Source: Thermoanaerobaculia bacterium
GTDB lineage: Bacteria > Acidobacteriota > Thermoanaerobaculia > Multivoradales > Multivoraceae
Assembly (NCBI GenBank): GCA_963666565.1
Contig: OY762911.1
Span: 2,912,001-2,976,000 of the forward strand
DNA length: 64,000 nucleotides
Direction: 5' to 3'
Below the pieces are notes generated by a model. The model was given only the letters and a program-made list of their open reading frames with translations, ran no database searches and was not told the DNA's origin. Shown one piece after another: positions 12,693 through 46,730 of the stretch. The first letter of the stretch is position 1, and the number at the start of each line of letters is the position of its first letter. The translations under genes and the position numbers were made by a program.

Positions 12693-12929
12693 CGGGTGCA
12701 CTGGGTGCGCGGGTCTTCCGCTGGGTGCGCGGGTCTTCCGACCCGCATGCCGCCGAAGGCGGCGGGAGAAACGTCGCCGGCCTTTGGCCGGCGGCCTTGT
12801 TGTCCGGGCTGCGCCTCGCGCGACTTCTTGTCGACGTGCGCTCGAACTTCTCCTTCGCCATGAGGTTGCTCCTGCTATCTCGCTTCGCGGCTTCGCCAGC
12901 GAGCGGGTCAGAAGACCCGCGCACCCAGC
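12693..12929. repeat. Family-A REP doublet with stuttered left end and an about 66-bp internal insertion
   Basis: Left end CTGGGTGCGCGGGTCTTCCG repeated in tandem; body matches 1292-1434 apart from the insert at 12816-12881. Confidence 0.9.
12835..12873 (-). pseudogene. tuf: Fragment of an elongation factor Tu translation-initiation region (RBS + MAKEKFERT)
   Basis: Minus strand AGGAG-7nt-ATGGCGAAGGAGAAGTTCGAGCGCACG = MAKEKFERT, the canonical EF-Tu N-terminus; similarity stops after 9 codons. Confidence 0.7.
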
Positions 12930-14764
12930 TACTGCTCGGCGCAGGCGGCCCGCAACTGTCGGGAGGCTTGGGCGAACGCCGGATTGTCGGCGGCGAAGCG
13001 GCGGCCATCGTCGAGGAGCGCCGTGGCCTCTTCGCAGCGGTCGGTCCGGGCAAGGATGGCGGCGAGGCGGAGCCGCGCCAGCGTGAAGTCGGGGCGAACG
13101 GCCAGAGTGGCGGCGAAAGCGCGGGCGGCTTCTTCCGGGCGCCGAAGGTCGAGCAGGACCATGCCGAGGACGAAGCTGGTCTGGGGTTCCGTCGGGTCGA
13201 GGCGCTGGGCCGTGCGGAGCTCCCGCGCGGCGTCGGCGAGGCGCCGCTCGATGGCGAGGACGCCGCCAAGTTCGGTTCGCAGGCGAGCCTCTTCGGCGGC
13301 GGGGAACCGCGTGGAGCGAAGGCCCCGTTCCAGGCCGGTCCGGGCTTCGCGCAGCCGGTTCTGCTGCCGCAACACGACGCTCAGCGCCTGCAGGGCGGCG
13401 GCGTCCGACGGGGCGGCGGCGACTCGCGCGTTCAGGATGTCCAGGGCCTCGGCCGGCCGGCCGGACGCGGCGAGGGCGGCGGCGCGCCGGGTCGGCGCCT
13501 CGGCGTAGGCGGGATCGAGCGCCAGGACGCGGTCGTAGCGCTCCAGCGCCTGCGTGGGGCGGCCCGCCCGGTCGAGGAGCAGCGCGAGCTGATAGTGGGC
13601 CTGCTTGTAGTCGGGCGCGAGCTCCGTCGCGCGGGTCAGACGCCGGATCGCTTCGTCCGATCGGCCGAGGGTGGCGAGGAGCTGTCCCAACTCGAAGTGC
13701 GCCGGCGCCTGGTCCGGGTGGAGAGCCAGCAGCTCTTCGTAGGCGGCTTCGGCTTCGTCGAACTGGCCGGCGTCGACCTGGGCCAGCGCCAGGTGCTTGC
13801 GCGCCTCCAGGTTCGTCGGATCCGCCTCGATGGCGCGGCCGAATACGGTCGCCGCGGCAGCGAACTCGCCGGCCTGCACCGCGATCAGACCCTGCTGGAC
13901 GAGAGCGGCGCTGCCGGTGGGCAGGTAGGCGAGTTCCCGGACCAGCGGGTCGTCGAAGGGGAAGTCGGTGTGGCTTGCCCGGGCGAGGTGCTCGGCCGCG
14001 CGGTCTTCGTCGCCCAGGCGGCGCCAGGCCATGGCGAGCGCATAGTGTCCGCGGCCCGCGCCGGGCTCGGCGGCGACGGCGCGCTCCAGGTAGTCGGCGG
14101 CGGTCTCGGCGTCGCCGCGGTCGAGTGCGAGTGTCCCGAGTCCGTACAGGGCCGGCGCGAACTCGGGCCGCAGTTCCAGCGCGCGGTTCCACAGGGCGGC
14201 CGCCTCTTCGGGCTGGCCGCGCTCGGCCTCCGATTGGGCGAGGCGCTGGATCGCCGGCACCAGGTCGGGCTCGATCGCCAGCGCGGCGCGGTAGGAGGCG
14301 GCCGCAGCCTCGTGGTCGCCGCGGGTTTCCTCGCCGAAGCCACGGAGGTAGGGCCAGCGATGGTCGGATGCGTCGAGTCGCTGTGCTTCCCGGTAGCAGG
14401 CTTCGGCCGCCTCGAGCGCGGTGAAGGCGTGGCTGTCCAGCAGTTGCACGCCGTGGTAGAGCTTGCCAAGTTCGCCGACCGCGGCCGCCAGTTCGGGGCC
14501 GGCGGCGCCGGCGTCCTCAAGCGAGCGGACCCGGCGTTCCAGGCTGGCGATCTGGCCGCGGACCGCCGGATCGTGGGCTTCGTAGCTGGAGGGGAGCGGC
14601 AGGCGCTCGGCTGCGCCGCAGGCGAGGAGGGGCAGCAGAACGACGTGGATGGCATGGGTCGCCAAGACGGCGCCGACCTTGCGGTCGGCAGGATTTCCCG
14701 GCCGCCTGCGGCGGCAGCGGGTCGGAAGACCCGCGCACCCGGCGCCACGGCGTTGTTGCTTCAT
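12929..14764 (-). CDS. Exported tetratricopeptide-repeat protein (possible lipoprotein, LLAC)
   Basis: ATG 14764 overlaps the CRTAC1 stop (ATGA); many TPR units (ALELRPEFAPALYGLG, AIEADPTNLEARKHLA, ATELAPDYKQAHYQLA). Confidence 0.85.
   Translation of the reverse strand: MKQQRRGAGCAGLPTRCRRRRPGNPADRKVGAVLATHAIHVVLLPLLACGAAERLPLPSSYEAHDPAVRGQIASLERRVRSLEDAGAAGPELAAAVGELGKLYHGVQLLDSHAFTALEAAEACYREAQRLDASDHRWPYLRGFGEETRGDHEAAAASYRAALAIEPDLVPAIQRLAQSEAERGQPEEAAALWNRALELRPEFAPALYGLGTLALDRGDAETAADYLERAVAAEPGAGRGHYALAMAWRRLGDEDRAAEHLARASHTDFPFDDPLVRELAYLPTGSAALVQQGLIAVQAGEFAAAATVFGRAIEADPTNLEARKHLALAQVDAGQFDEAEAAYEELLALHPDQAPAHFELGQLLATLGRSDEAIRRLTRATELAPDYKQAHYQLALLLDRAGRPTQALERYDRVLALDPAYAEAPTRRAAALAASGRPAEALDILNARVAAAPSDAAALQALSVVLRQQNRLREARTGLERGLRSTRFPAAEEARLRTELGGVLAIERRLADAARELRTAQRLDPTEPQTSFVLGMVLLDLRRPEEAARAFAATLAVRPDFTLARLRLAAILARTDRCEEATALLDDGRRFAADNPAFAQASRQLRAACAEQ
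14699..14743. repeat. Family-A REP half element inside the 5' end of the TPR CDS
   Basis: GCCGCCTGCGGCGGCAGCGGGTCGGAAGACCCGCGCACCCGG, read as GAGCAGLPTRCRRRRP. Confidence 0.85.
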
Positions 14765-16554
14765 CGTTCGCCTTCGCCCTGCCGGAGCTCGTGGTAGGCG
14801 CCGGGTGGAAGCGCGCCGAAGGACTCTTCGGCGCCGGCTAGCCAGTCGACGCGGATGTCCTCGATGGTGGCGTCGCCGAGGCCGATCAGCACCCGCGGAT
14901 CGCTGGACGAGGCGTAGCTCATCGCCGCGCGGACCCGGCGCGCGAGCGCCCGGCCGTCGGTGAGCCGCACCCGGACCAGGCTGCCGAGGGCGTCCCGGTT
15001 GCCGCCGGCGGTCACGAGCCGGAGGCCGATCCAGCCGTTGTCCTGGCCGACCAGGTTCACCAGCAGCCTCGCCGGTCCGCCGTTGTTCGTGACGAGCACG
15101 TCCGTGTCGCCGTCGTTGTCGACGTCGCCGAATGCGGCGCCGCGGGAGACCTCGTAGGCGGCGAAGACCGGTCCGCCGAGCGCGGAGGCATCCTCGAAGC
15201 GGCCGTCGCCGAGATTGCGGAAGAGCTGGTTCGGTTGGCCGAAGCGGCGCTCGTGTTCGGTGGCCGCGGCCGTGCGCGCGGCGGCCCTGTCGCCCGAGCG
15301 GGCGCGGTCCAGGCGCCGCACGGCGCCGTTCACCGCGAGGAGATCGAGGTCGCCGTCGTTGTCGAAGTCGAACCAGCCGGCGCCGAAGCCGGTCATCGGC
15401 AGGCTGGGCGCGTCCAGGCCCGCGGGAACGCCGGCATCGGCGAACAGGGCGTCGCCTTCGTTCACGTAGAGGGTGCTCGTCTCGCCCGTGATGTGGGTCA
15501 CGTAGAGGTCCTCGTCGCCGTCTCCGTCGAGGTCGCCGGCGTCGACGCCCATGCCCGCCTCCGGTTCGCCCCGGCGGTTGACGGCCGAGCCGCCGAAGAA
15601 CGCGCGGTTCTCGAAGCGGCCGTCGCCGAGGTTCATCCACATCTGGTTCGCCGTGCCGTCGTTGGCCACGTAGAGATCGAGCCGGCCGTCGAGATCCAGA
15701 TCGGCCGGCACGGCGCCGAGGCCGTTGCCGAATTCGGCCGCGAGGCCGGCGCGGTCCGTGGACTCCTCGAAGCGCCCGTTGCCGTCGTTGCGGAACAGGC
15801 GGTCCGGCTCGGCGCGGTAGGTCTTCGGGCTGCAGTAGTCCGGCTCGCCGCTGCCGAAGGTGCAGAGCGTGTGGCTGCCGAGATTGAAGTCGACGTAGTT
15901 GCCGACGAACAGGTCGAGCGCTCCGTCCGCGTCGTAGTCGAAGAACGCGGCGGGAACGCTCCATCGCGGGTCGTCGGCGCGGGCAGCCGCTGTCGCGTCT
16001 TCGAATCGGCCGCCGCCCGCGTTGCGCCAGAGCTGGTTGGGGCCCAGGTTCGTGACGTAGAGGTCAACGTGGCCGTCCCCGTCGAAGTCCCCGGCGGCGA
16101 CGCCCATGCCGTAGCCGGTGGCGTCGATGCCGGACTGCTCCGTTGCATCGACAAAGCGAAGTTCGCCTGTTTCGGCCAGTTCGTTTCGGAACAGGCGGTC
16201 GCGAGCGGGGGAGTCGGCGGCGGCACTCCGGGCGCCCGCGGTGCCCGGGTTCAGCGGGCCGCCTTGCACCAGGTATGCGTCGAGATCGCCGTCGCCGTCG
16301 GCGTCGAACAACGCCGCGCCCGAGCCCATGATCTCGGGCAACAGGAACCGGCCGCCGGCGGCGTTCCGGTGCTGGAAGACCAGGCCGACTTCGGCGGCGC
16401 TCTCTTCAAGGGCCGCCGGCGTCGCCGGCGCGGCAGCGGGCGTGTCCGTACTCACCGGTTCCTCCACGAGGCCGATTCGTGGGTCTTCTGCGCAGTTGAG
16501 GATCCCGGCCGTACAGATCAGGACCGTGACGAGCGGGCGGGGCGTTGGCGGCAT
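14761..16554 (-). CDS. CRTAC1 family protein (FG-GAP repeats + ASPIC/UnbV domain), probable lipoprotein
   Basis: EIMGSGAALFDADGDGDLD, repeated DxDxDGxxDL motifs, SRGAAFGDVDNDGDTD, SYASSSDPRVLIGLG; ILNC lipobox-like. Confidence 0.9.
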   Translation of the reverse strand: MPPTPRPLVTVLICTAGILNCAEDPRIGLVEEPVSTDTPAAAPATPAALEESAAEVGLVFQHRNAAGGRFLLPEIMGSGAALFDADGDGDLDAYLVQGGPLNPGTAGARSAAADSPARDRLFRNELAETGELRFVDATEQSGIDATGYGMGVAAGDFDGDGHVDLYVTNLGPNQLWRNAGGGRFEDATAAARADDPRWSVPAAFFDYDADGALDLFVGNYVDFNLGSHTLCTFGSGEPDYCSPKTYRAEPDRLFRNDGNGRFEESTDRAGLAAEFGNGLGAVPADLDLDGRLDLYVANDGTANQMWMNLGDGRFENRAFFGGSAVNRRGEPEAGMGVDAGDLDGDGDEDLYVTHITGETSTLYVNEGDALFADAGVPAGLDAPSLPMTGFGAGWFDFDNDGDLDLLAVNGAVRRLDRARSGDRAAARTAAATEHERRFGQPNQLFRNLGDGRFEDASALGGPVFAAYEVSRGAAFGDVDNDGDTDVLVTNNGGPARLLVNLVGQDNGWIGLRLVTAGGNRDALGSLVRVRLTDGRALARRVRAAMSYASSSDPRVLIGLGDATIEDIRVDWLAGAEESFGALPPGAYHELRQGEGER

Positions 16555-16580: not shown

Positions 16581-16612
16581 AGAAAGGGGAGAGAGCCGAA
16601 GCCCTCTCCCCT
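16581..16612 (-). terminator. Intrinsic terminator of TBDR-1
   Basis: Minus strand GGGGAGAGGGC-TTCG-GCTCTCTCCCC-TTTCT. Confidence 0.8.
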
Positions 16613-16763: not shown

Positions 16764-19700
16764 CTAGAACCGGATCTTGAAGTTGGCCCGGACCGTCCGC
16801 GGGCGCTGGAAGAACCGGCGCACGGGCAGAACCTCGCCGGCGCTGTTCCAGGAGCGGCGGCGCTGCTGGTTCGTGGCGTTCAGCACCTCGACGCGGAGTT
16901 CGCCGCGGACATCCTGGAAGCCCAGGGGGAATCCCCAGGCGCCGCTCAGGTTGACCGTGTACTCGTCGGCAGTCCGCCTGCCCTCCGTGCCGGACGGATG
17001 GAGCGGGAAGCCGACGCCCGTGTTCGAGGTTCCGGGGCGCTGGTTGGCGTTGGCGTCCGTCACGTCGACCGGCAGGCAGATCGGAATCGACGTGGGGATG
17101 CCGGGCGGCCGCGGACCGCAGGGCCGCTCGTAGCCGGCGCCGGACGACGTGGTCCAGGGCGTGCCGGTCTGGAACGTCAGGTGGCCGCCCAGCGTCAGAT
17201 CCTGGTTGCCCAGGCGCCAGGTCTTGAAGCCGAAGGTGTTCCAGATCCACTCGCGGTCGTACGTGCCGTTGGCCCCGCGCCGGTTGATCATGCTCGCCGG
17301 GTAGCCGAGCCAGTCCGTCAGGCGGGCGACGCAGTCCTCCGGATAGAGCGGCGTCCGCCCGGTGCGGCGGTCCGGCCTCGTCTGGGCGGCCTGGCAACTA
17401 TCGATGTTCTGCTGGTTCAGCACGACGTGAGCCGCCTCGAGGTAGGTGCTGTTCGTGTTGTTCCACCAGGCGCCGGCGCCGGTCGTGTCCGTGCTGGCCC
17501 AGGCCAGGTTGTTGTACAGCGCCCAACCGTCCGCGAAGCGGCGGTTCAACTGGAGCTGAACCCCCTTGAACGAGTTCTTCGCCGGATCGGCCAGTTCAAG
17601 GGCCTCCCGGTTCAGTTGGGCCGGGCGCTCGGCCGGGTCGTAGCCCTGAGCGGCCCAGGTGGCGGCCCGCGCGTCATCGAAGGCCACAAGTATGTCGTAC
17701 AGGTCGTGGTAGTTCTCGGTGACGCCGATGTTCCGTCCCTTGTGGTCGAGCTGGTTGTTGGAGAACATCATGTCCTGCAACTGCCAGTCGATGTACTTGA
17801 GGTCAAGGGCCCAGTTGGGGCGGAACTGCCACTCGAGGCCGAGGATCGCCTCCTGCTTGTAGTACGTCTGGACGTCGTAGTCCAGGACGCCGGCCTGGAC
17901 CGCGTCCCACATGAGGCCCGGCGTCGTCAGCTCCCAGGAGAGGTTGTAGCCGGGCAAGGGCGCGCCGACCGTTCCGTTGTGGAGCGAGTCCCGCCGTTGC
18001 GGGACGCGGCAACCGTAGTTGGTCAGGCCGAGGAACTGCAGGAAGTCGAAGGTCGCGATGTCCGCGGGATCGCAGAAGAGGAAGACCTCGTGCCCCTCGT
18101 AGCCGTTCCACAGGTCGTGCATGCTGGGGACGTTCGAGTCGCCGCCCGAGATCCACGCCTGGTTGAGCATCGCGTGGTACTGGCCCCAGCTCGCGTTGAG
18201 CAGCAGGGCGCCGTCCCCCTTGATGTCGTAGGTGATGTTGATCCGCGGGTCGACGTAGGTGTCGTCGATGACCTGGCGCCGGACGTCGTTCCACGCCTCC
18301 TGCTGCTCGGCCCGAAGGCCCATGTTGATCGTCCAGTGATCGCCGATCGTGAAGCGGTCCCGAATGTAGTAGCCGAGGTTGCGCACCTCGCTGTCGCCCG
18401 TGCCGCGTCCGACGCAGGTGCCGGTCGTACGGACGACTTCGCCGTTCACGTGCTCGACCGTGGTCGGCCGGTGGGGCATGCCGTCAGGGGCGTTGCCCTC
18501 GCAGGTCAGGAAGGTCGAGTTGTGGTCGGTGAAGTAACAGGTCCGGCCGCGGATGGGCGAGGTTCCCGTGCGGGTGAACGGCGTGGCGCAAGTGTCGTCG
18601 GCGATCGTCCCCGCGCCGAGGAAACCGAACGGGTTCGTCGGATCGAAGCCCCAGCCCTGGAGCAGGGGCACGCGGGCGTTCTCGCCCTCCCACTTCGTGT
18701 CCTGGTAGTCGATGCCGTACTTCAGCTCGTGGTTCGCGCCGGCGAACTGGGTCAGGCCGACGTTCGCCTGCTCGCGCGGGAAGGCGTTGAAGCCGAAGCC
18801 GTCGGAGAGGATCCAGCCGTTGTGCCAGGAAGAGAGGTTCTCGGCGTCCCGGTAGACGTTGTAGTTGTTGCCGGGGTAGAAGATGCCCTTGCTCGGGTCG
18901 AACGGGAACCGCAGCGGGTAGCTGGTGTCGCCGCCCGACGTGTTCGTCGCCGTGTGGCCCGCGACCGGCCCGCGGTCGAGCGACTTCGCCTGCAGGCAGG
19001 TCTCGATCATGCGGGCGGGCGTGTCGCGGTAGTTGTCCTGGGACAGCCACTCGAGGACGGGAATGCCGTCCACCGCCTGGGCGGCGGGGTTCTCCTGCTG
19101 GAGCGTGTCGTGGCAGGCGAGGAACTTGTTCTCCTGGGTCTCCTGGTCGGCGATCTTCGCCTCCATGAACCAGTTGCTGGAGAGCGCCCAGTTCCAACTG
19201 ATCGTGGAGAGGACGCTGTCGTTCTCGTGCGGCGTCGGCGTCCAGTAGTCGTAGGACTGCCAGTTGAAGTAGTTGCGGAACGCCGGGGTGTCGATCCCGG
19301 ATGCCGCGAACGAGTGCGACGCCGACGGCTGCATGTTCAGCTTGAGGATGCGGGCGTCGGCGTACAGGCTGACGTCGTACGGGTCGCCGCCGAGCAGGCG
19401 CTCGGAGTAGGCGTCGTCGAACTCGGACGCGCCAATGAAGAACCAGAACTTGTCCCGCATGAGAGGACCGCCGGTGGAGAACTCGTAGCCGTCGCTGGAA
19501 CCGGCCCACTCGTCGCTGCCGGGCAGGCAGGCGTCGCGGTTGATCGTGGAGACTTCCTCGACGATGCTGGGCGGGATCTGGCCGCGGCCCTGGTCCCGTT
19601 CGTCGCCGTGGCAGCGCCGGAACCAATCGACCGGGTAGGGCCGGTTCCGTCGTTCCGCCAGCGAGGGCTGATCCCTGTAGTCGGCGCTCCAGTCGACCCG

Positions 19701-20444
19701 CTGGTGGTTCCAGAGGACATCCGCGTGCCAGCGGTTCGTGCCCGACTTGACGATCACGTTGGTGGAGGAGCCGATGTAGCGGCCGTACTCGGCGGAGGAG
19801 CCGCCGGCCTCCATCGACACCTCGGTCAGAGCCGTCGTGGGCAGGAACACGCGGCTGCCGCCGAACTTGGCGAACGTCGTGTCGACGCCGTCCACGTAGA
19901 CGCCCTGATCGGCGAAGTGGGTGCCGTTGACCGAGGGCCGCGTCTGCTGGATGTCGTCGTTCTCCGCGTCCGCGGTGACGCCCGGAAGGGCGTTGATCAC
20001 GCCGTAGTAGGTGCGCGTCGTGCCGGCGGTCTGCTCGCCGATCTCGGAGGTCACCGTGCTGCCGGCCGTGACGTTGAACTTGTCGACCATCGGCGTTTCG
20101 GCCGTGACGTCGACGACGCCGCCCTCGACCGCGGCCTGCAGGGTGAGGTCGACGGACTTGCGGTCGCCGGCCGCGGCGTGGAAGGTCGCCTGGGCTCCGC
20201 CCAGACCCTCCAGTTCCGCGGTCAGTTCGTAGGTGTCGGGCACGACGCCGACGAACCGGTACTGGCCGTTCTCGTCCGTGATCGCGAACTTGTCGCCGCG
20301 GCCGCTGGAGAGGGTGACGCTGACGCCGGGCAGGGCGGAGCCCCCCGGGTCGACGACGGTGCCGCTGATCGTGGCCGTCTCCGGCGCGTCGGCGAAGGCG
20401 GCGAAGGGGATCAGCAGAATCAGGATCGCTGCGAGTCGCTTCAT
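16764..20444 (-). CDS. TonB-dependent receptor 1 (Oar-like, N-terminal carboxypeptidase-regulatory-like domain)
   Basis: Signal peptide; ISGTVVDPGGSALPGVSVTL; plug motifs DGVDTT, SAEYGR, NVIVKSGTN; GGPLMRDKFWFF; C-terminal Phe (FKIRF). Confidence 0.9.
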   Translation of the reverse strand: MKRLAAILILLIPFAAFADAPETATISGTVVDPGGSALPGVSVTLSSGRGDKFAITDENGQYRFVGVVPDTYELTAELEGLGGAQATFHAAAGDRKSVDLTLQAAVEGGVVDVTAETPMVDKFNVTAGSTVTSEIGEQTAGTTRTYYGVINALPGVTADAENDDIQQTRPSVNGTHFADQGVYVDGVDTTFAKFGGSRVFLPTTALTEVSMEAGGSSAEYGRYIGSSTNVIVKSGTNRWHADVLWNHQRVDWSADYRDQPSLAERRNRPYPVDWFRRCHGDERDQGRGQIPPSIVEEVSTINRDACLPGSDEWAGSSDGYEFSTGGPLMRDKFWFFIGASEFDDAYSERLLGGDPYDVSLYADARILKLNMQPSASHSFAASGIDTPAFRNYFNWQSYDYWTPTPHENDSVLSTISWNWALSSNWFMEAKIADQETQENKFLACHDTLQQENPAAQAVDGIPVLEWLSQDNYRDTPARMIETCLQAKSLDRGPVAGHTATNTSGGDTSYPLRFPFDPSKGIFYPGNNYNVYRDAENLSSWHNGWILSDGFGFNAFPREQANVGLTQFAGANHELKYGIDYQDTKWEGENARVPLLQGWGFDPTNPFGFLGAGTIADDTCATPFTRTGTSPIRGRTCYFTDHNSTFLTCEGNAPDGMPHRPTTVEHVNGEVVRTTGTCVGRGTGDSEVRNLGYYIRDRFTIGDHWTINMGLRAEQQEAWNDVRRQVIDDTYVDPRINITYDIKGDGALLLNASWGQYHAMLNQAWISGGDSNVPSMHDLWNGYEGHEVFLFCDPADIATFDFLQFLGLTNYGCRVPQRRDSLHNGTVGAPLPGYNLSWELTTPGLMWDAVQAGVLDYDVQTYYKQEAILGLEWQFRPNWALDLKYIDWQLQDMMFSNNQLDHKGRNIGVTENYHDLYDILVAFDDARAATWAAQGYDPAERPAQLNREALELADPAKNSFKGVQLQLNRRFADGWALYNNLAWASTDTTGAGAWWNNTNSTYLEAAHVVLNQQNIDSCQAAQTRPDRRTGRTPLYPEDCVARLTDWLGYPASMINRRGANGTYDREWIWNTFGFKTWRLGNQDLTLGGHLTFQTGTPWTTSSGAGYERPCGPRPPGIPTSIPICLPVDVTDANANQRPGTSNTGVGFPLHPSGTEGRRTADEYTVNLSGAWGFPLGFQDVRGELRVEVLNATNQQRRRSWNSAGEVLPVRRFFQRPRTVRANFKIRF

Positions 20445-20489
20445 GAGTGCTCCTCGGATGAGGGTTGGATCGAGGCCGAGTGAGAGGCC

Positions 20490-20517
20490 ACTATACGACC
20501 GATGGGGAGCGAGTCAA
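20490..20517 (-). promoter_or_regulatory. Sigma70-like promoter of TBDR-1
   Basis: TTGACT-16nt-TATAGT on minus strand; GAGGAG RBS downstream. Confidence 0.7.
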
Positions 20518-20530
20518 AGGAGGCGGGACG

Positions 20531-20548
20531 GATCCAGCAGGTTGGATC
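20531..20548. promoter_or_regulatory. Palindromic operator, copy 1
   Basis: GATCCA-GCAGGT-TGGATC; homologous sites lie upstream of the other two TBDRs. Confidence 0.7.
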
Positions 20549-20767
20549 GAGTCTTGCGGGGGCTCGACATCGCGCGCGGCGTACCGTGGTCCGCTTGGGA
20601 GTTGCGGCGCGAGACCGTCGACTCGGCTCGCACGCGCGGCGTACCCGCTCGGCTATGCTGTCCGCGCCCTTGCCGAGTGCCCGGACTGTCGGGCCGCGCA
20701 TTCTCGCTCCTTCATCGGGGCGCTCCCGACCGGAGGCGTCCCACCCGATCAAGGAGAACGACACACC

Positions 20768-21454: not shown

Positions 21455-21462
21455 CTCCGCCG

Positions 21463-38606: not shown

Positions 38607-41036
38607 TCAGGGCCGCGGGCGGACCGGGGCCAGTTCGCCTCGCCCCTCGACGAGCCGGTAGAGGCTGTCCGGCTGGACGCTGGCGAAGCTCTCGGTCCGG
38701 TCGCTCGCGGGCCAGTAGACCGCGACCCTCTCGACGGCTTCTGGCTGGCCGAGCCCGATCGTCTGGCGCAGCGGGTTGCCGCCGAAACTGCCGCCGCCGT
38801 TGACGCGGCGGTGGATGCTGCGCCGGGCGCCGTCCGGGTCAAGGACGTCGACCCGGATGCGGGCGCCGATCGCCGAGCGGTTGCTCACCGTCCCCATCAG
38901 GCGGAGCGCCAGCCAGCGGTTGCCGAAGCCCGGGTTGCGGAAAAGGGCGTCGCCGAAGCGGTCGCCGGGGAAGGCCCCGCCCATCTGCTCGAACACGTCC
39001 AGGTCGCCGTCGCCGTCGAGATCGGCGAAGGCGACCGCGTGGCCCTTCTGCAGGTGGCCGAAGCCGGCGGCGAGGCTGACGTCGACGAACCGGCGGCCCG
39101 CCAGGTTCCGGTAGAGGACGTTCGGCATGATCGCCTCGTAGTCGGGATAGCCGGTGCCGAGGTAGAAGTCGAGGTAGCCGTCGAAGTCGAGGTCGCCGAA
39201 GTTCGAGCCCATCGGAAGCTGCAGGCGGGTGAGCCCGCTCTTCACGGCAACGTCCTCGAAGCCGCCCTTGCCGTCGCCCCGGTAGAGCCTGGCGAGTTCC
39301 CATGGACCCGGAAAGCCCTGGTAGCTGGCGGCGACGAAGCCGAGGCCGCCGCGGTCGCCGGTGTAGCTGGAGACGAATAGGTCCAGGTTGCCGTCGTTGT
39401 CGAAGTCCCAGAACCAGGCCGGGAAGCTCTGGCGGGGTCCGGCGACGCCGAGCCGGGGCGCTGTGTCCTCGAAGCTGCCGTCGCCGCGGTTGCGGAACAG
39501 GCGGTTGGGGCCGCCGAGCACGGAGAGGTAGAGGTCGGGAAAGCGGTCGTTGTCGTAGTCGCCCCAGACGGCTGCCTTGACGAAGGCGCGGGTGGCGACG
39601 CCGGCTTCCGCCGCGACATCCCGAAAGCGGACGACGCCGTCCTCGCCCTGGCCCTCGTTGCGGAAGAGTTGCGACGGCGCGTCGACCGCCGGGCCGTGCT
39701 CGTTGCCGACGAAGAGGTCGAGGTCGCCGTCGTTGTCGTAGTCGGCCCAGGCGGCGGTCTGCGTGGGGTAGTGGGTCTCGCCGAGGCCGGAGAGGAACGT
39801 GACGTCCCGGAAGACCGGCGGCCCCGGCTCGCCGCCGTCGGCCGACTGGTTCAGCAGAAGCGAGTTCGGGTGGCGGCCGTGCGGGCCGAACCAGGCGCCG
39901 CGCAGCACGAAGAGGTCGAGGTCGCCGTCGTTGTCGGCGTCGCCGTGGACGACGTTCAGGCCGCCGTAGAGCCCATCGAGGCCGGCCGCGGCAGAGAAGT
40001 CGGTGAAGGTGCCTGTGCCGTCGTTAAGGAAGAGCCGGGGCGAGACCGCGGGATCGAAGGTCGTGGTGAAGATGTCGAGGTCGAAGTCGCCGTCGAAGTC
40101 GTCGACGACGGCGCCGCCGGAGAGGTTGAAGCTGTCGATCCCGAGCTCGGGCGCGACGTTGACGAAGCGCGGGAACTCGGCCGCCGAACCGAAGGCCGCG
40201 AGCGGCAGCCGGTGATCCGGTTCGACCGCCGCCGGGTGGTCGCCCAAGGTCATGTGGGCCAGGTTCAGCAGCCACTTCGCCTTGACCTGCTGCACGGAGT
40301 TCGGCGGTACGGCCGCGAGGTACTCGCGGAGGAAGCGCGCCGCCTGCTCGGAGCCCTCACGTTCGCTGTGAACGGCATCGCCGCGGATCGGCAGGATGCA
40401 CGCGTTGGCCCCCCCTGGCGACCCGTGCAGCCCGGCGCAGTTGCGGCTTTCGCCGTAGCGCAGCCAGGCGACGGCGATCCGGAACAGGGTCTCGGTCTCG
40501 TCGCCGAGCGTCGCGGGCGATGCGGACGTGAGTTCGTACGCTTCGCCGAAACGCTCCAGCGCGGCCGGCTCGTCGCCGAGGCGGAGTTCCTCCTCGGCCA
40601 GGTCGACGAGGAGGCGGAACCGCGTGGCGGCGGGGGCATCGGCGGCCGCGGCGAGCGCTTCGCGCGCGGCTTGGGCCGGGGCCTCGCCCAGCCAGGGGTT
40701 GCGGTCGAGGTCTTGGGTGCGGATCGTCTCCAGCGTCTCGACCATCCGGGCGTGGCTCGCGTCGATGGAGGCTGGCCGGACGGGAGGTTCCTGGGCCGCG
40801 GTGGCTGGGGCCAGGAGCAGGGCAGTCAGGAACCACCATGAGCGGAGGCAAGGCCGTGTCGGCGCCGGCCTGGCGGCCGGCCCGGTTTCCTGGCCGCCTT
40901 CGGCGGCAGCGGGTCGGCACCCTGGTGGCGCGTCACCGCGCCACCAGCGTCCCAGTCCGTGCGCCCGTCCTCGGGCGCACGGATGGCAGACCCGCGCACC
41001 CGGCGAAGCCTCGGCAAGTCGGCGGGCAGCCAGCAC
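38607..41036 (-). CDS. CRTAC1 family protein with helical/TPR-like N-terminal region, FG-GAP repeats and ASPIC/UnbV domain
   Basis: GESRNC...CILPI; KWLLNLAHMTLG; DYDNDGDLDL repeats; GHLQKGHAVAF; GGSFGGNPLRQTIGLG; GTG 41036 is the only in-frame start between the upstream stop and the signal peptide. Confidence 0.85.
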   Translation of the reverse strand: MLAARRLAEASPGARVCHPCARGRAHGLGRWWRGDAPPGCRPAAAEGGQETGPAARPAPTRPCLRSWWFLTALLLAPATAAQEPPVRPASIDASHARMVETLETIRTQDLDRNPWLGEAPAQAAREALAAAADAPAATRFRLLVDLAEEELRLGDEPAALERFGEAYELTSASPATLGDETETLFRIAVAWLRYGESRNCAGLHGSPGGANACILPIRGDAVHSEREGSEQAARFLREYLAAVPPNSVQQVKAKWLLNLAHMTLGDHPAAVEPDHRLPLAAFGSAAEFPRFVNVAPELGIDSFNLSGGAVVDDFDGDFDLDIFTTTFDPAVSPRLFLNDGTGTFTDFSAAAGLDGLYGGLNVVHGDADNDGDLDLFVLRGAWFGPHGRHPNSLLLNQSADGGEPGPPVFRDVTFLSGLGETHYPTQTAAWADYDNDGDLDLFVGNEHGPAVDAPSQLFRNEGQGEDGVVRFRDVAAEAGVATRAFVKAAVWGDYDNDRFPDLYLSVLGGPNRLFRNRGDGSFEDTAPRLGVAGPRQSFPAWFWDFDNDGNLDLFVSSYTGDRGGLGFVAASYQGFPGPWELARLYRGDGKGGFEDVAVKSGLTRLQLPMGSNFGDLDFDGYLDFYLGTGYPDYEAIMPNVLYRNLAGRRFVDVSLAAGFGHLQKGHAVAFADLDGDGDLDVFEQMGGAFPGDRFGDALFRNPGFGNRWLALRLMGTVSNRSAIGARIRVDVLDPDGARRSIHRRVNGGGSFGGNPLRQTIGLGQPEAVERVAVYWPASDRTESFASVQPDSLYRLVEGRGELAPVRPRP
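40892..41003. repeat. Family-A REP with a 69-bp family-B double-hairpin module in its loop
   Basis: GCGGGTC-GGCA-[CCCTGGTGGCGCG..CGCGCCACC..TCCGTGCGCCCG..CGGGCGCACGGAT]-GGCA-GACCCGCGCACCC. Confidence 0.8.
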
Positions 41037-41041: not shown

Positions 41042-42889
41042 CTACTTCGGGCCGATGTTTCCCGTGGACGTCAGCACGGTCCCTGTCAGCGGATCGTAGA
41101 CGGCGATGACGTAGGTGTGTTCGCGCCGGCGAAGCTGCAGGTCCGTCTGGTAGTAGAAAACCTGGCCGGGGCTCGGTCTGGCGGGGCCGGCGATCCGGAC
41201 CTTCTCGACCGACATGTCGGCGCGGGCGCCGGTCATGTCCATCGCCGTGACGCGCACCTCGATTTCGGTGAGCCACTCGCCGGCCACGGGCAGAAGCTGG
41301 ATCTCGTCGAGCGGGATGGCGACCTCCACGGGGACCGAGATCCGGCCGCGTCGGCGGCCGCGGCCGCGTACCGGGTCGGAAAAACTCACCTCGAGGGGCC
41401 GGACGCCGGGCTGGCCCCCGAACAGCATGGCCGCCTCGACCGTCATGTCGACTTCGCGGTCGCGCGACATGTCCACGTAGCCTTCGCGGGTCCGCACGCG
41501 AAGCTCGGGGCGCCCGGCCAGACGGACCTCGACGTCGTGGAACGCGTCGTCCTCGCGCCGCCTCGGCTCGAAGCCCAGCCAGTAGTACGAGCGGGTGTCC
41601 TCGACCGCCCCGGCCAGCGCCGCGTCGCGCTCGGCGTTCAGCAGCGGCACGCCGCCGGTGGCGCGGGCCAGCAACTGGAGTGTGCCGTGGAGCAGGTCTT
41701 CCCGGTTCGTCGACCCGGCGACGACGCCGAGGCTGTCGGGCGTCGCGTCCGGCCCCAGCGCCCGCGAGGCGTCGCCCGCGAACTCCGCGCTCATGGCCGG
41801 CACGTCCACCGGATAGAGCGAGTAGCCGATCAGGTTCGCCGCCGAGACGAGCGGACCGTAGAGCTCGTCTTCCGAGGCCAGGAACCCGTCGGCCACGGCG
41901 GCGGCGTTGACGGTGTTCTCGCTCGCGTCCGCCACGGTATAGAGCGCCGGCGACCGCGGCCAGCCTCCCGCCAGCAGCAGCATGACCTTGCGGCCCGCGG
42001 GGTTGGAGAAGCTGCGCATGCTCGCCACCGCGGCCAGCACGGAGCGGCGCAACCGCTCCTCCATGCTCCTCGCGAACCGGCGCTCGAGGCCGGAGAGGGA
42101 CGAGCCCAGCACGTCCTGCGCGCTGCCGGTGTCCTCGGGGAGCATCGCGTCCGCCTCCCTCAGCCCGGCGCCGGGATCGGCGAATCCGGCCGGCACGGCG
42201 TCCGCCGGGCCGGCGATCTCCTCCGGCCTCAGCCGATCGCCCGAGAAAGCCTGGTCGGCGACGGCCTCCAGGACGGCCTCGGCTTCCCGGTCGCCGGCCA
42301 GGATCGTCCGTTCGCCGAGTCGCTGCCAGCCGTAGCTCGGCCGCTCGCGGGCGCGGGCGAGCGCGTCGGCCAGCCGGCCCGGCGCCGCGGTCCAGCCGGT
42401 CAGGGTGTCGATGCTCCGGCCGTCGAAGGCGACGGCGGCCATCCGGTCCGCAGGGTGGAGGCGCGACAGGTCCGCCTCCAGGCGGTCGAGCACCCGGTTC
42501 CGGTCGCGCTCCATGGCGAACACGTCGTCGACGAAGACGAGGAAGTTCGTGCCCACCGGCGTGTTCGGGTCCAGGCTCGGCACGCCGGCCACCGCTGCGC
42601 CGGCGCCGGCTCTGGCGATGCTCTCGTCGATCTCGGTGAAGTAGCTGATCGGCATCGGCTCGCCGTCCACCAGGAGCTCGAACTCCGCCGCCTCCAGCCC
42701 GTGGACCCGGTTTCCGTCTCCGTCGGTGACGACGACCTCGATGTTGACCACCCGGACATCGATCGTCTCCGTGAACACGGCCGGCAGTTCGCTCTGCTGG
42801 GCCGCGGCAGGGGCCGGGATCGCCGCGGCGAGCAGAGGAAGCGCCGCGACGATGCGGGCGGCGTGGACGGGACTGAGGAGGGTTGTCAT
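41042..42889 (-). CDS. Secreted acidobacterial-type VWA-related protein
   Basis: Signal peptide; FTETIDVRVVNIEVVVTD; GRKVMLLLAGG; LARATGG; SYYWLGF; VRTREGY. Confidence 0.85.
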   Translation of the reverse strand: MTTLLSPVHAARIVAALPLLAAAIPAPAAAQQSELPAVFTETIDVRVVNIEVVVTDGDGNRVHGLEAAEFELLVDGEPMPISYFTEIDESIARAGAGAAVAGVPSLDPNTPVGTNFLVFVDDVFAMERDRNRVLDRLEADLSRLHPADRMAAVAFDGRSIDTLTGWTAAPGRLADALARARERPSYGWQRLGERTILAGDREAEAVLEAVADQAFSGDRLRPEEIAGPADAVPAGFADPGAGLREADAMLPEDTGSAQDVLGSSLSGLERRFARSMEERLRRSVLAAVASMRSFSNPAGRKVMLLLAGGWPRSPALYTVADASENTVNAAAVADGFLASEDELYGPLVSAANLIGYSLYPVDVPAMSAEFAGDASRALGPDATPDSLGVVAGSTNREDLLHGTLQLLARATGGVPLLNAERDAALAGAVEDTRSYYWLGFEPRRREDDAFHDVEVRLAGRPELRVRTREGYVDMSRDREVDMTVEAAMLFGGQPGVRPLEVSFSDPVRGRGRRRGRISVPVEVAIPLDEIQLLPVAGEWLTEIEVRVTAMDMTGARADMSVEKVRIAGPARPSPGQVFYYQTDLQLRRREHTYVIAVYDPLTGTVLTSTGNIGPK

Positions 42890-43116: not shown

Positions 43117-44997
43117 CTAACGGGCGCCGCCGGGAGCGCGGAGGGGTTGCCTCGCCCGGTAGAGGCGAAGGCGGTCGAGCCGTTGCGGCGAGTTGCCGCC
43201 GGCGGTCTCGCGCTCGCGGTCGAGGGCCCGCTGTTGCCAGGAGACGGCTTCGTCGAAGCGGCCGGCCTCGGCCATCGCCATCGCGAGCGTTTCGAGGTGG
43301 TCGACGGCCGGTTGCTCGTCGACGACGGAGCGGGCGAGTTCCACGGCGCGTTCGCCGTCGCGCGCCGCTGCGTCGGAGCTGGTGGCGAGCAGCCGGGCGA
43401 GCAGGTGGCGGACGGCGAGGTCGCCTGGGAAACGTTCGAGCGCCGTCTCCAGCGTCTCGCGGGCGGCGGCGAACCGGCCGCTCTGGAACCGCGTCAGGCC
43501 GAGGTTGAAGTGGACGCGGAGGTCGTCCGGGGTCAGCGCGGCCAGGGCGGCGAGGTGCTCGGCGGCCCGGCCCGGCTCGCCGGCCTCCAGCAGCAGGGCG
43601 GCCAGCAGCCGGTGCGCCTCGATGGCGCCCGGGTCGAGCCGGACGATCTCCTCGAGTTCGGCGCGGGCGCCGGTGGCGTTGCCGGCGTCGGCCCGGGCCT
43701 GCGCCCGCATCAGCCGCCACTGGAGGTTCTCCGGGTCGAGGTCGGCGGCCCGCTCCAGGTGCAGCGCTCCCTCGGCGGTGCGGCCGGTGCGGCCGAGCAG
43801 GAGGGCGAGGTTGAAGTGCGCCGCGCCGTGGGCGGGATTCGCTGCGATCGCGTGCCGAAGGTGCTCCTCGGCGGCCGCCCGGTCGCCGCTCTCGATCAGG
43901 GAGCGGGCCAGATTGAAGTGGAGTTCCGGGTCGGCGTCGGCGTCGGCGTCGGCGTCGCCGTCGCCCTCGGCCAGGAGTTCCCGGTACAGGGCGACCGCCT
44001 CCTCGTTCCGGCCGGAGCGGGCGGCGCGCACCGCGCGGTCGAACCGGGCCTCGGTCTTCACGCCGTAGATCTGGAGCCGGTCCCGGAGAGGATCGGCGAT
44101 GGCGATCGGCACCTGCCGGTTGCGCGCGAGTTCGGCGCGGGCACGGGCGGCGTCTCCGCTCGCCCGCAGAGCCATGCCGAGGTGGTGGTGGACGACGCTG
44201 CCTTCCGGCTGCGAGGCGAGCACCGCCTCGAAGGCGGCGATCGCTTCCGCGGTGCGGCCCCGGTCCATCGCGACCCGGCCGAGGCCGAACCGCGCCGCGG
44301 CGCTCTCGGGCCGTGCGTCGAGCGCCCGCGCGTAGGCGGCTTCGGCGGCGTCCAGATCGCCTGCGTCGAGGTGAAGGTCGCCGGCGCGGATCAGGGTCGC
44401 CGTGTCGTCCGGGCGCAGCGCGAGGGCTGCGCGGGCTGCGAGCCGGGCGCGCTCCAGGTTGCCGGTGGCGTCGTGGAGCAGCAGCTCGTAGTAGGTCCAC
44501 TGGAAGTCGTTCGGCGCCAGCAGCCGGAGCTGCGCCAGGCAGACGGCGGCGGCGCCGTGAAGTTCGTGGTGGAGGTACTGCAGGCAGAGGTGGCCGAAGG
44601 AGTTGGCGGCGATCTGGGCTTCTTCGTCGGTGGCCGCGGCCTCCAGGGCGGCGCCGACGGCGGCGCGGCCGGCGGCGATCTGCTCGCGGGTCTCGGCGTC
44701 GAGGTGGTCGAGCGATGGGGCCGGCACGGCGTCGAGGGAGAGGAGGGCGCGGACCTTGCGGGCGTCGTCGGTGGGCTGCGGCGCCTGGGCGGCGGCCTGC
44801 GCGGCGCCGGCGAAGATGAGGCACAGGAAAAGGCCGCCCACTGGGTGCGCGGGTCCTCTGACCCGCTGCCGCCGAAGGCGGCCAGAAGAACGACGGCCGA
44901 AGGCCGACCTCTTTCTCCGGCCTGCACCGCTCTGCGGCGCCGGGCCGGAGGGCGGGTCAGAAGACCCGCGCACCCAGAGGAAGCGTAGTCGGGTCAA
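43117..44997 (-). CDS. Exported tetratricopeptide-repeat protein, paralog of 12929..14764
   Basis: TTGA overlap with the CRTAC1 stop; signal core GGLFLCLIFAGAAQA; many TPR units; ARDGERAVELA...AEAGRFDEAV. Confidence 0.85.
   Translation of the reverse strand: MTRLRFLWVRGSSDPPSGPAPQSGAGRRKRSAFGRRSSGRLRRQRVRGPAHPVGGLFLCLIFAGAAQAAAQAPQPTDDARKVRALLSLDAVPAPSLDHLDAETREQIAAGRAAVGAALEAAATDEEAQIAANSFGHLCLQYLHHELHGAAAVCLAQLRLLAPNDFQWTYYELLLHDATGNLERARLAARAALALRPDDTATLIRAGDLHLDAGDLDAAEAAYARALDARPESAAARFGLGRVAMDRGRTAEAIAAFEAVLASQPEGSVVHHHLGMALRASGDAARARAELARNRQVPIAIADPLRDRLQIYGVKTEARFDRAVRAARSGRNEEAVALYRELLAEGDGDADADADADPELHFNLARSLIESGDRAAAEEHLRHAIAANPAHGAAHFNLALLLGRTGRTAEGALHLERAADLDPENLQWRLMRAQARADAGNATGARAELEEIVRLDPGAIEAHRLLAALLLEAGEPGRAAEHLAALAALTPDDLRVHFNLGLTRFQSGRFAAARETLETALERFPGDLAVRHLLARLLATSSDAAARDGERAVELARSVVDEQPAVDHLETLAMAMAEAGRFDEAVSWQQRALDRERETAGGNSPQRLDRLRLYRARQPLRAPGGAR
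44841..44977. repeat. Family-A REP doublet within the 5' end of the TPR ORF
   Basis: CTGGGTGCGCGGGTCCTCTGACCCGC...GCGGGTCAGAAGACCCGCGCACCCAG. Confidence 0.9.
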
Positions 44998-46730
44998 GGC
45001 GGCGTCCCTGGGGCCGCAGCGGCCCTCTGCACGATGTGGTAACGGCCAGTCTCAAGCGTGACTGTCTGCGCGGCGCCGTCGGGCCAGCGGACCTCGACGA
45101 CGAGGCGGTTCCGGTTCTCGGCTGGCTCGCCGGTGCCCGGCAGCGGGAAGAGCAGCCGCGGATCGCGGGCGGCTGCGTAGCTGCCGTCGGTATGCACCCT
45201 GCGCCAGCCGCCTCCGTCGACGACGCGGGCGCGCGCGCCGTAAACGTCGACGAAGTCCTGCCGGTCGTCGCCGACTGCCTCCACCAGCCTCAGGCCGACC
45301 CAGTCGTCCGCCGGCTGGCGCCGGTTCAAGAGCACCCGCGCCGGTCCGGCGTTGTTCGTCACGACGAGATCCGGGTCGCCGTCGTTGTCCAGGTCGCCGA
45401 CCGCCAGGCCGCGGCTGACCTCGACGTGAACCGGCCGCTCGCGGCGTTCCGCCGGCACGGTCTCGAAACGGCCGTCACCGAGACCGCGGAAGAGCTGGTT
45501 CTCCATCCGCAGCGGGTGAGGATCGCCGGCCTCGACCTGGCTCTCGATCCGCCGCACCGCCCCGTTCGCGACGTAGAGATCGAGCACGCCGTCGCCGTCG
45601 AAGTCGAGGCTGGCGGCGCCGAAACCCGTCATCGGCCAGCTCGCGTCGATCAGGCCGGCCTCGCGGCTGCGGTCGTCGAAGATCCCGTCGCCGTCGTTCA
45701 GGTAGAGCGTGTTGTGCTCGCGGACGAGGTGGGAGAGGAAGATGTCGGGCGCGCCGTTGCCGTCGAAGTCGCCGACGGCCACGCCCATGCTGGCCTGCGG
45801 GCGGCCGTCGCGGTCGAAGGCGGCGCCCGCGAACACCGCGTCCTCGACGAAGGTCCCGTCGCCCCGGTTGAGCCAGAGGTGGTTGGCCATCTGGTCGTTG
45901 GCGACGTAGAGGTCGACGAGACCGTCGCCGTTGAAATCGGCGGCGACCGCGCCCAGCGCCGTGCCGGCGTCAACCGAGTCCGCGCCCAGGCCGGAACGGA
46001 CCGTGGCGTCGACGAAGGTGCCGTCGCCCAGGTTGCGGAGCAGGCGGTCGGCCTGCGCCGGCTGGCTGAGCGGCCCGCAGTAGTCCGGCTGGCCGCCGGT
46101 CAGGAAGCAGCGCTTGCGGTTGGCGCGGTGGAAGCGGTGGTAGTTGCCGACGTAGAGGTCGAGCCAGCCGTCGGCGTCGTAGTCGAAGAAGACGGCCGGC
46201 ACGCTGAATCGCCGGTCGTCTGCGCCGGCGGCCGCCGTGACGTCCTCGAAGCCGCGTCCGTCGATGTTGCGAAGGAGCCGGTTCGAGCCCAGGTTCGTCA
46301 GGTAGAGGTCGACCCAGCCGTCGCGGTCGTAGTCGCCGGTGGCGACGCCGGTGTTGTAGCCCGGCGCGTGGAGGCCGACTTCCCGCGTGGCGTCGGCGAA
46401 ACGGAGTTCCCCGGTCTCGGCGAGAGCGTTGCGGAACAGGCGGTCCGTGGGTTCGGCGGCCGGCGGCGGGAAGACGGGCTCGCGATCCTCGTCGCCGTCG
46501 AAGGAGCGGCCCTGCCCGAGGTAGACGTCGAGGTCGCCGTCGTTGTCGTAGTCGAACAGGGCGACTCCGGCGCCGACGACTTCGGCAGTGTAGAGCTGCC
46601 CGGTCATGCCGTTCCAGTGGACGAAGTCGATGCCCACCTCGGCGGCGACCTCTTGGAAGGCAGGCGAGACATCCTCGAGGCTTCCGGGCGCCGCGGCGAG
46701 GGCGGTGCTGAGCGCCAGTACGACCATCAT
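44994..46730 (-). CDS. CRTAC1 family protein (FG-GAP + ASPIC/UnbV)
   Basis: EVVGAGVALFDYDNDGDLD, PDYCGP, QASMG, SRGLAVGDLDNDGDPD, GSYAAARDPRL. Confidence 0.9.
   Translation of the reverse strand: MMVVLALSTALAAAPGSLEDVSPAFQEVAAEVGIDFVHWNGMTGQLYTAEVVGAGVALFDYDNDGDLDVYLGQGRSFDGDEDREPVFPPPAAEPTDRLFRNALAETGELRFADATREVGLHAPGYNTGVATGDYDRDGWVDLYLTNLGSNRLLRNIDGRGFEDVTAAAGADDRRFSVPAVFFDYDADGWLDLYVGNYHRFHRANRKRCFLTGGQPDYCGPLSQPAQADRLLRNLGDGTFVDATVRSGLGADSVDAGTALGAVAADFNGDGLVDLYVANDQMANHLWLNRGDGTFVEDAVFAGAAFDRDGRPQASMGVAVGDFDGNGAPDIFLSHLVREHNTLYLNDGDGIFDDRSREAGLIDASWPMTGFGAASLDFDGDGVLDLYVANGAVRRIESQVEAGDPHPLRMENQLFRGLGDGRFETVPAERRERPVHVEVSRGLAVGDLDNDGDPDLVVTNNAGPARVLLNRRQPADDWVGLRLVEAVGDDRQDFVDVYGARARVVDGGGWRRVHTDGSYAAARDPRLLFPLPGTGEPAENRNRLVVEVRWPDGAAQTVTLETGRYHIVQRAAAAPGTPP

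Follow-up and report, generated by a model that had tools for sequence, protein, structure and literature searches.

A 64,000-nucleotide stretch of DNA from a Thermoanaerobaculia bacterium (assembly GCA_963666565.1, contig OY762911.1, positions 2,912,001 to 2,976,000; hereafter the window) harbors, between positions 12929 and 46730, genes for three TonB-dependent transporters (TBDTs, here TBDR1 to TBDR3) together with CRTAC1/ASPIC-UnbV propeller proteins and TPR proteins. We propose, tentatively and at somewhat less than an even chance, that the CRTAC1-TPR module binds or processes a substrate, probably a glycan, beside the Oar-class TBDT(s). An earlier note on this DNA had described nine genes as one co-oriented envelope system, and all nine open reading frames (ORFs) are indeed present on the minus strand in the order CRTAC1, TPR, VWA, CRTAC1, TBDR3, TBDR2, TBDR1, CRTAC1, and TPR. 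Pfam and NCBIfam upheld the domains it had named, that is, three CRTAC1/ASPIC-UnbV proteins (PF13517 with PF07593), three TBDTs with a CarboxypepD-type N-terminal extension (NTE), two TPR proteins, and one VWFA protein, and the export signals it had ascribed to all nine products, either signal peptides or lipoboxes, are visible by eye, without recourse to a predictor. The closest relatives are Thermoanaerobaculia, many of them named Ca. Multivorans, and the host is itself Ca. Multivorans-like; Ca. Multivorans inhabits marine sponges, and a literature search for it turned up no relevant paper. A genome scan gave the best 80 of 176 stretches, all from close relatives, and the comparison covered 41 related loci from 36 assemblies.

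Strong genomic evidence marks the CRTAC1 and TPR proteins as a functional unit, whose two partners are predicted to bind each other. In the first pair, CRT_A (44994..46730, minus strand, as are all nine genes), a propeller of the Cys-loop subfamily with a Sec/signal peptidase I (SPI) signal, six PF13517 matches, and PF07593, is followed by the superhelical protein TPR_A (43117..44997), which carries an SPI signal and starts at a TTG overlapping the CRT_A stop. The second pair consists of two lipoproteins, namely CRT_C (14761..16554), a seven-bladed Ca-loop propeller with an UnbV beta-sandwich, and TPR_C (12929..14764), which displays an LLAC lipobox and an ATG start overlapping the CRT_C stop. 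The 4-bp overlaps (ATGA and TTGA) bear out the translational coupling that the earlier note had described for both pairs. Of 58 such junctions in the related loci, counting the two in the window, 53 have the same overlap; among the five that do not, those of L018 and L023 have the look of frameshifts or mis-calls. A further pair, CRT_D-TPR_D, occurs in many relatives, whereas the window has lost it by deletion. Within each pair, the two partners go together in their export type: by a crude pattern, a lipobox-type Cys was found in 24 of 24 TPR_C, 10 of 10 TPR_D, and 1 of 19 TPR_A, with the matching partner Cys present in CRT_C and CRT_D and absent from CRT_A. The partners are also gained and lost together; 23 loci reach the downstream flank, both CRT_C and TPR_C being present in 21 of them and neither in two, and the pair was lost jointly in L030 and L036. 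Moreover, CRTAC1-TPR fusions, joined in the same order as the genes, account for 14 of the best 150 CRT_C homolog clusters. On inspection, 13 of these retain no leftover signal-like stretch; a signal-like linker persists in the remaining fusion (P0321), possibly an artefact.

The third propeller gene, CRT_B (38607..41036), encodes a second CRTAC1 subfamily with an SPI h-region and a probable GTG start at 41036; it is about 30% identical to both CRT_A and CRT_C, which share 49% with each other. The TPR-like character that had been claimed for its helical N-terminal domain finds support in ESM Atlas (score 0.93), but not in Pfam, which returned zero matches. When window positions 41189-40702 are compared with positions 1-3880 of locus L006, the DNA following the VWA gene matches the start of CRT_D and then jumps by about 3.5 kb to the start of CRT_B, which indicates that CRT_D-TPR_D was removed from the window by a deletion of about this size. 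The start codon of CRT_B is apparently the one that formerly served CRT_D.

The structure of the propeller points to a candidate function. The CRT_C model (147 sequences, pLDDT 96.2) matches murine CRTAC1 (PDB 9etn) over its whole length, with a Z score of 40.6 and a root-mean-square deviation (rmsd) of 2.2 A across 441 residues, and it contains seven DxDxDG loops; Pfam, the model, and the fold match agree in assigning to the CRTAC1 proteins the FG-GAP Ca-loop propeller and UnbV-ASPIC domain that had been expected of them. Foldseek ranked GlcNAc lectins at the top after CRTAC1, followed by the integrin headpiece, aldos-2-ulose dehydratase, and rhamnogalacturonan lyases, while an ESM Atlas search retrieved FG-GAP look-alikes only. 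Apart from the calcium ligands, the invariant residues of CRT_C, numbered from window position 16374, are E14, Q37, W138, Y160, C171, Y180, C181, N238, D239, M275, H294, E298, T328, N349, and R411, and, in different blades, they precede the first strand or follow the second. Such propeller loops form the top face. From this topology we infer that the invariant residues converge on one central top-face pocket beneath the Cys loop, a pattern such as an enzyme or a binding protein with one site would show. The motif C-x8-YC[SG]P is shared by CRT_A and CRT_C, as the earlier note had it, but it is a family-wide signature rather than a peculiarity of this locus: it occurs in 103 of the best 150 CRT_C representatives, in 114 of 120 members of a further set, and in 0 of 120 CRT_B relatives, and is thus the mark of the CRT_A/CRT_C subfamily. 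CRT_B has a different set of conserved residues.

The three barrels, TBDR3 (34769..38431, with the second ATG, at 38419, as its probable start), TBDR2 (25023..28727), and TBDR1 (16764..20444), carry the PF13620 CarboxypepD_reg extension that defines the Oar subclass of TBDTs (PMC6434023; here and below, PMC numbers refer to the passages of the articles concerned). The plug domain PF07715 was matched in TBDR1 and TBDR2, and the TBDR3 model (66 sequences, pLDDT 86.9) comprises the NTE, a flexible TonB-box linker, a plug, and 22 strands as counted from DSSP. Set against the TonB-box consensus, EVTVTG in this linker is a candidate box, and a C-terminal Phe is present. The window barrels and those of the close loci form one clade with a support of 1.0 (FastTree, 131 sequences), and the copies in the window are 66-75% identical (TBDR2 shares 75% with TBDR1 and 67% with TBDR3), which on tree and identities is a recent triplication within Multivoraceae; one to four tandem copies per locus were seen in the stretches available. 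Extracellular loops make up 649 of the 1197 residues of the TBDR3 model and hold all 14 Cys. These loops are the most divergent part, being 60-69% identical between paralogues versus 86-97% for the plug, which suggests that the copies take related but different ligands. Partial or chimeric barrel copies lie beside full ones in L002, L010, L026, L029, and L035, resulting either from recombination in the tandem array or from assembly errors.

The fold of the barrel might be read as that of a protein or peptide importer of the FusA/YddB type, with CRTAC1-TPR receiving the polypeptides. TPRs bind peptides, FusA and YddB ranked first and second in Foldseek, and FusA gave the longest VIA-align alignment (685 residues, Z 35.0, rmsd 5.3, rank 6); the loops of FusA are, moreover, extended for a protein ligand (PMC11658791). 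However, siderophore receptors score equally or higher by Z (Fiu, Z 37.6, rmsd 3.0, 535 aligned residues), a SusC reached Z 30.2, and the scan of 35 window proteins turned up neither an M16 protease nor an ABC transporter, which leaves this importer a very improbable explanation. As siderophore receptors score like FusA, the substrate is not readable from the barrel fold. By sequence, no relative of the barrel beyond the NTE was found in the PDB, no SusC/RagA model appeared among the NCBIfam matches of the three barrels (E<=0.001), and a plasmid search with the barrel gave zero matches.

The neighborhoods of homologous barrels had been chosen beforehand as the check on which the proposed association could fail, and CRTAC1 and TPR genes were found linked to them. 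A CRTAC1 gene is present in 37 of the 41 close loci; of the remaining four, two are contigs shorter than 4 kb, one (L015) is the other chromosome end of L038, and only L041 is a true exception. Close-range synteny by itself proves little, because the housekeeping flanks are syntenic too and 14 of the 35 related loci that show the upstream CRTAC1-TPR block have it inverted. For more distant barrels (32-62% identity), barrel-bearing contigs and contigs with a CRT_B homologue were taken as shared when exactly equal in size, the best 120 of 6773 CRT_B hits being used. Eight of 49 contigs matched, against a jitter null with a mean of 0.09 and a maximum of 3; three of the eight are 10-17 kb long, and the matched barrels are spread across the clade in the tree. 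Among contigs of 8-60 kb, 5 of 22 matched versus 0.14-0.98 expected if 2-15 CRT_B-type genes are assumed per 5 Mb. A linkage of CRTAC1 to distant barrels of the clade is thereby indicated indirectly. A one-to-one pairing of barrels and propellers was also considered and is ruled out, the barrels being a recent triplication and the propellers old (30-49%), with a mirror-tree comparison that was not significant; the "3+3" symmetry is incidental.

The substrate class is suggested by CRTAC1 homologues in other bacteria. CRT_C matched 13 plasmid records, from which 12 loci were analysed after exclusion of a second Tritonibacter strain (L054); nine contain a TBDT, and 11 contain glycosidase, lyase, sugar-transporter, or LacI/ROK genes. 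All four Terriglobia loci possess a TPR gene, which stands next to CRTAC1 in three, and on the Acidisarcina plasmid pACPOL3 the genes follow the order of the window, TBDT-CRTAC1-TPR, between GH172, LacI, and fucP genes. The barrels of these glycan loci are of the Oar type but unrelated to those of the window. The six CRTAC1 proteins of Terriglobia glycan loci belong to the Cys-loop subfamily and retain Y160, C171, C181, P183, D239, M275, and R411, and five of them retain E14. In Tritonibacter, the CRTAC1 gene follows a sugar ABC system and a ROK gene.

The same loci bear on a strict SusCD analogy, in which the propeller or the TPR lipoprotein would be a hinged lid capping the barrel in a fixed complex. 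SusD contains TPR motifs, TPR_C and CRT_C are both lipoproteins, and SusD is unlisted in the four Terriglobia loci where TPR and CRTAC1 flank the barrels. Nevertheless, a true SusD stands alongside the CRTAC1 homologue in all six Bacteroidota and Gemmatimonadota loci, so that CRTAC1 is unlikely to replace SusD, although these homologues are of a different subfamily, and the likeness to SusCD drawn in the earlier note is not supported for CRTAC1. Likewise, SusD is absent from the best 25 of 31 Pfam families for TPR_C (to E 5e-4) and from the best 25 of 29 for TPR_A (to E 0.1), while the same library recovers SusD at 1e-34 in Gemmatirosa, and the best 60 of 211 matches of the TPR profile in the PDB are generic TPRs with SusD absent. 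A terminator-like hairpin (16588..16611, minus strand) divides TBDR1 from CRT_C, the two are lost independently (TBDR1 is missing from six loci that keep CRT_C-TPR_C and present in two that lack the pair), and the barrel already holds its 649 loop residues, all of which make a lid quite unlikely.

We therefore return to the proposal of a substrate-binding or substrate-processing module, under which the locus would be a loose nutrient-acquisition cluster of two modules, the gate and CRTAC1-TPR. At the gate, an Oar-class barrel would capture the substrate with its own long loops, probably without a SusD lid. The CRTAC1-TPR partners would be made as a translationally coupled pair in which the TPR superhelix scaffolds the propeller, pair C being anchored by lipid on both partners and pair A being soluble, with CRT_B carrying its own helical domain. 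Occupying an accessory slot rather than that of SusD, the module would contact the barrel and bind or chemically process the imported substrate, probably an oligosaccharide or glycoconjugate, in the envelope. An uptake-associated role, as had been suggested for an uptake or adhesion machine, is thus supported by the linkage of the barrels to CRTAC1 and TPR, which recurs in glycan loci, whereas the machine of three barrels and three propellers is not. A bolder form of the proposal, possible but rather unlikely in our estimate, would be a SusD-free utilisome of Acidobacteriota in which self-lidded Oar barrels pass the substrate to a TPR-tethered propeller constituting an undescribed class of carbohydrate-active enzyme or lectin, with a Glu/Asp/His/Arg/Tyr pocket under a disulfide lid.

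Several observations weigh against a glycan-handling module associated with the barrels. No glycosidase, sugar transporter, or regulator was found by Pfam within 12929-46730, and the scan of 35 window proteins confirmed the earlier statement that glycosidase and siderophore genes are lacking. The plasmid loci are few, glycan loci abound among them, and they have no baseline control; the Terriglobia barrels are just 20-27% identical to those of the window, across the NTE and plug only; E14, R411, and the Cys loop are missing from the Bacteroidota homologues; and Tritonibacter and one Acidisarcina locus carry the CRTAC1 protein without a barrel. The barrel promoters look near-consensus rather than substrate-specific. 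In L041, the 10 kb to each side of the barrel contain no CRTAC1, PurU and PSD1 belong to the syntenic flanks of Multivoraceae in 21 of the 23 loci reaching them, the 41 distant CRT_C hits gave zero matches to barrel contigs, and co-evolution of barrel and CRT_B was not significant (Mantel rho 0.30, p 0.11, nine pairs). The family also occurs outside glycan contexts, some CRTAC1-family entries being named enediyne E4, and is found in hydrazine-synthase-like gene clusters (PMC12758564).

Part of this evidence would suit an incidental neighborhood, that is, two expanded families sharing an old chromosomal position. With 8371 clusters at E<1e-30, the CRTAC1 family is very large; in Solibacter, both families belong to the paralogue groups that have expanded (PMC3174227); and the separate promoters, the inversions, L041, and the Mantel test fit mere cohabitation. 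Chance association is, however, hard to reconcile with the excess of matched contigs of 8-60 kb and with an adjacency that is met again in other classes and phyla, beside barrels unrelated to these, and we consider it to have a small probability. Another part recalls a redox or halide accessory, in which the propeller would be a scaffold or subunit of oxidative envelope enzymes, perhaps of the downstream cytochrome c PSD1/DUF1501 pair. A part in iodination is ascribed to the enediyne cassette; vanadium-haloperoxidase-annotated genes stand near the ASPIC-UnbV genes in three of five Bacteroidota SusCD loci (L046, L049, and L050), c-type cytochromes occur in two Granulicella loci, PSD1 is present in 21 of the 41 close loci, and the hydrazine-synthase-like clusters (PMC12758564) and "enediyne E4" labels point the same way. 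Yet the window contains no haloperoxidase, PurU lies on the opposite strand between TPR_C and PSD1, and the oxidative partners vary from case to case, which renders this explanation highly improbable.

The VWA gene calls for separate consideration, since it had been proposed as a member of the system resembling integrin I-domains. Its product, VWA_M (41042..42889, minus strand; TIGR03436, 136 bits), is an acidobacterial VWFA protein whose sequence lacks the DxSxS of the metal ion-dependent adhesion site (MIDAS). The gene occurs in 1 of the 41 loci and in 0 of the 20 spanning its slot, no VWA fusion was found among 390 CRTAC1 homologues, and no sequence relative was found in the PDB; VWA_M is a passenger and not a conserved part of the locus, and for this gene the likeness to integrin breaks down. 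This bears on an Oar-like alternative, according to which the barrels secrete CRTAC1 with TPR as chaperone and the propellers serve as Ca-dependent surface adhesins or host-interaction proteins. Such export has a precedent in Myxococcus Oar, which has the same PF13620 NTE and secretes the 50.8-kDa protease PopC (PMC6434023, PMC11658791), and adhesion would accord with the integrin-like propeller (PMC3192720) and with the abundance of TPR, VCBS, and ASPIC-UnbV domains in the sponge symbiont Poribacteria (PMC3909097). The same CRTAC1 subfamily nonetheless resides in glycan loci of soil Terriglobia, its conserved residues indicate a single pocket instead of per-blade sites, and the VWA protein is neither conserved nor endowed with a MIDAS, which makes secretion or adhesion unlikely. 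Outside the studied locus, at 1442-7766 on the minus strand, lie the genes of two more large VWFA proteins (TIGR03436), in which the DxSxS is intact.

Each barrel is predicted from consensus matches to be a separate transcription unit. Sigma70-like promoters, all on the minus strand, precede TBDR3 (38473..38501, TTGACA with a non-canonical -10, conserved in orthologues), TBDR2 (28771..28797, TTGACA-N15-TATAGT), and TBDR1 (20490..20517, TTGACT-N16-TATAGT), each barrel start has a strong Shine-Dalgarno sequence, and terminator-like hairpins follow TBDR3 (34691..34714) and TBDR2 (24940..24967), in addition to that between TBDR1 and CRT_C. In the related loci, a strict TTGAC-N-TAnnnT match was found at 47 of 91 barrel starts versus 2 of 566 background windows, most TBDR3 starts having TTGACA with a non-canonical -10, and a downstream hairpin at 62 of 88 barrel ends. 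A separate -10-like motif (TAnnnT) precedes CRT_A in 16 of 18 cases and CRT_C in 20 of 26, compared with 48 of 533 background windows. With its own promoter and hairpin for each barrel, the region would consist of separate units and not of one operon.

The single locus envisaged earlier is further broken up by 10.6 kb of insertion sequence (IS), toxin-antitoxin, and foreign genes between the barrels, and the co-orientation of its genes, though true in the window, is not conserved, as the inverted upstream blocks attest. The nine genes occupy 22.4 of 33.8 kb, with inter-barrel gaps of 6041 and 4578 nt that contain an IS3, a Phd/PIN toxin-antitoxin pair, a DUF900 hydrolase, a Uma2 nuclease, a CarboxypepD-repeat protein, and an opposite-strand ORF, several of the gap ORFs having a low GC content at third codon positions (GC3). 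The accessory DNA between TBDR3 and TBDR2 (28728..34690), which lies outside the system, includes the Phd/PIN pair (28950-29532) and IS3 (29694-30895); its components each occur in 1-5 of the 41 loci, and two of its non-IS ORFs are low in GC3. There, a 131-aa secreted ORF and the 893-aa CarboxypepD-repeat protein (31216-34578, minus strand), with low GC3 and a promoter-like site of their own, are otherwise seen only in L005. The insertion between TBDR2 and TBDR1 (20465..24939), likewise outside the system, holds a membrane ORF, the DUF900 hydrolase, the Uma2 nuclease, and a nuclease-like ORF of 329 aa (20465-21454, plus strand). The latter gives weak nuclease-like Pfam matches and has homologues in 14 of the 41 loci at shifting positions, sometimes several per locus, which suggests a mobile or defence gene. 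The corresponding gaps of relatives are occupied by different transposases, PIN toxins, and a methylase, which identifies them as insertion hot spots.

A palindromic repeat resembling repetitive extragenic palindromic (REP) elements occupies 19 mostly intergenic sites in the window (for example, 1294, 12723, 12903, 14717, 21465, 44843, 44952, 46770, and 58334). Being present in just 4 of the 41 related loci, it is a lineage-specific expansion, and no transposase tied to it was seen in the window. Copies lie in frame in the signal n-regions of TPR_C (14717-14740), TPR_A (44952-44975), and probably CRT_B (about 40860-41000), as well as in that of the L020 TPR_A, and they lengthen the n-regions by about 30-60 residues with the coupled TPR start preserved. 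That the CRTAC1-TPR coupling is an artefact of such repeats at the TPR 5' ends could be ruled out, because repeat-free orthologues keep the overlap. Inside one repeat cluster (12760-12861, minus strand), the start of a short ORF, equipped with a Shine-Dalgarno sequence, reads MAKEKFER, which resembles the N-terminus of EF-Tu, and is possibly a captured gene fragment.

Elsewhere in the window, a cytochrome c/DUF1549/DUF1553 gene and a DUF1501 gene (7780-11705, minus strand) lie beyond TPR_C and PurU, a downstream position that they also keep in relatives, and an unusual fusion (58594-61623, plus strand) joins BNR-repeat, family 3 solute-binding, and chorismate mutase domains. The window search detected no tRNA or Rfam family.

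The bacterial CRTAC1/ASPIC-UnbV family comprises 67,432 clusters at 50% identity (E<=0.001), and no assigned function for it was found in the literature searched, which left out most subscription papers; nor was any publication found that links the family with TonB-dependent transport, although supplementary locus tables could already record such a link. The present analysis supplies a partner (TPR), a context (TBDT glycan loci), and candidate active-site residues for the bacterial proteins, whose function is directly testable in the cultured hosts Granulicella tundricola and Acidisarcina polymorpha, and it bears on how Acidobacteriota feed via many TBDTs without SusD. If true, an enzyme or lectin propeller would for the first time assign a biochemical function to this family, which runs to tens of thousands of clusters and counts human CRTAC1 among its members.

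Among known proteins, vertebrate CRTAC1 (PDB 9etn) and enediyne E4/UnbV resemble the window proteins in the whole-length fold and in the FG-GAP and UnbV-ASPIC domains (PMC10477339). In contrast with vertebrate CRTAC1, the window proteins lack an EGF domain, and the bacterial copies are coupled or fused to TPR. Enediyne cassettes consist of a polyketide synthase (PKS), a thioesterase, E3, and E5, with E4 corresponding to UnbV, and no PKS, thioesterase, E3, or E5 family appeared in the Pfam and NCBIfam scans of the window. The barrels share very long extracellular loops with their top Foldseek matches FusA and YddB (PDB 4zgv and 6ofr), but at about 10% identity, and the partner protease or ABC transporter is absent from the locus. 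Oar of Myxococcus xanthus shares with them the PF13620 NTE, plug, TonB box, and 22-strand barrel (PMC6434023); Oar exports PopC and adjoins ton genes (PMC6434023), whereas neither exbBD nor tonB was seen in the scan of 35 window proteins. The carbohydrate utilization (CUT) loci of Xanthomonas, a genus that has Oar-like TBDTs, exemplify SusD-free carbohydrate uptake through TBDTs, and their defining components are degradative enzymes, a regulator, and a transporter of the inner membrane (PMC1790865), which the Terriglobia loci possess and the window does not. Finally, the SusCD polysaccharide utilization loci (PULs) or utilisomes of Bacteroidota likewise combine a TBDT bearing a CarboxypepD-type NTE with neighboring lipoproteins (PMC11658791), and ASPIC-UnbV homologues are encoded downstream of SusCD pairs; the window differs in having no SusD, glycosidase, or regulator, and its barrels are monocistronic and, by NCBIfam, not of the SusC type. 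It is defensible to describe the system as a SusD-free variant of TBDT-centred utilisation loci, looser in organization than first proposed.

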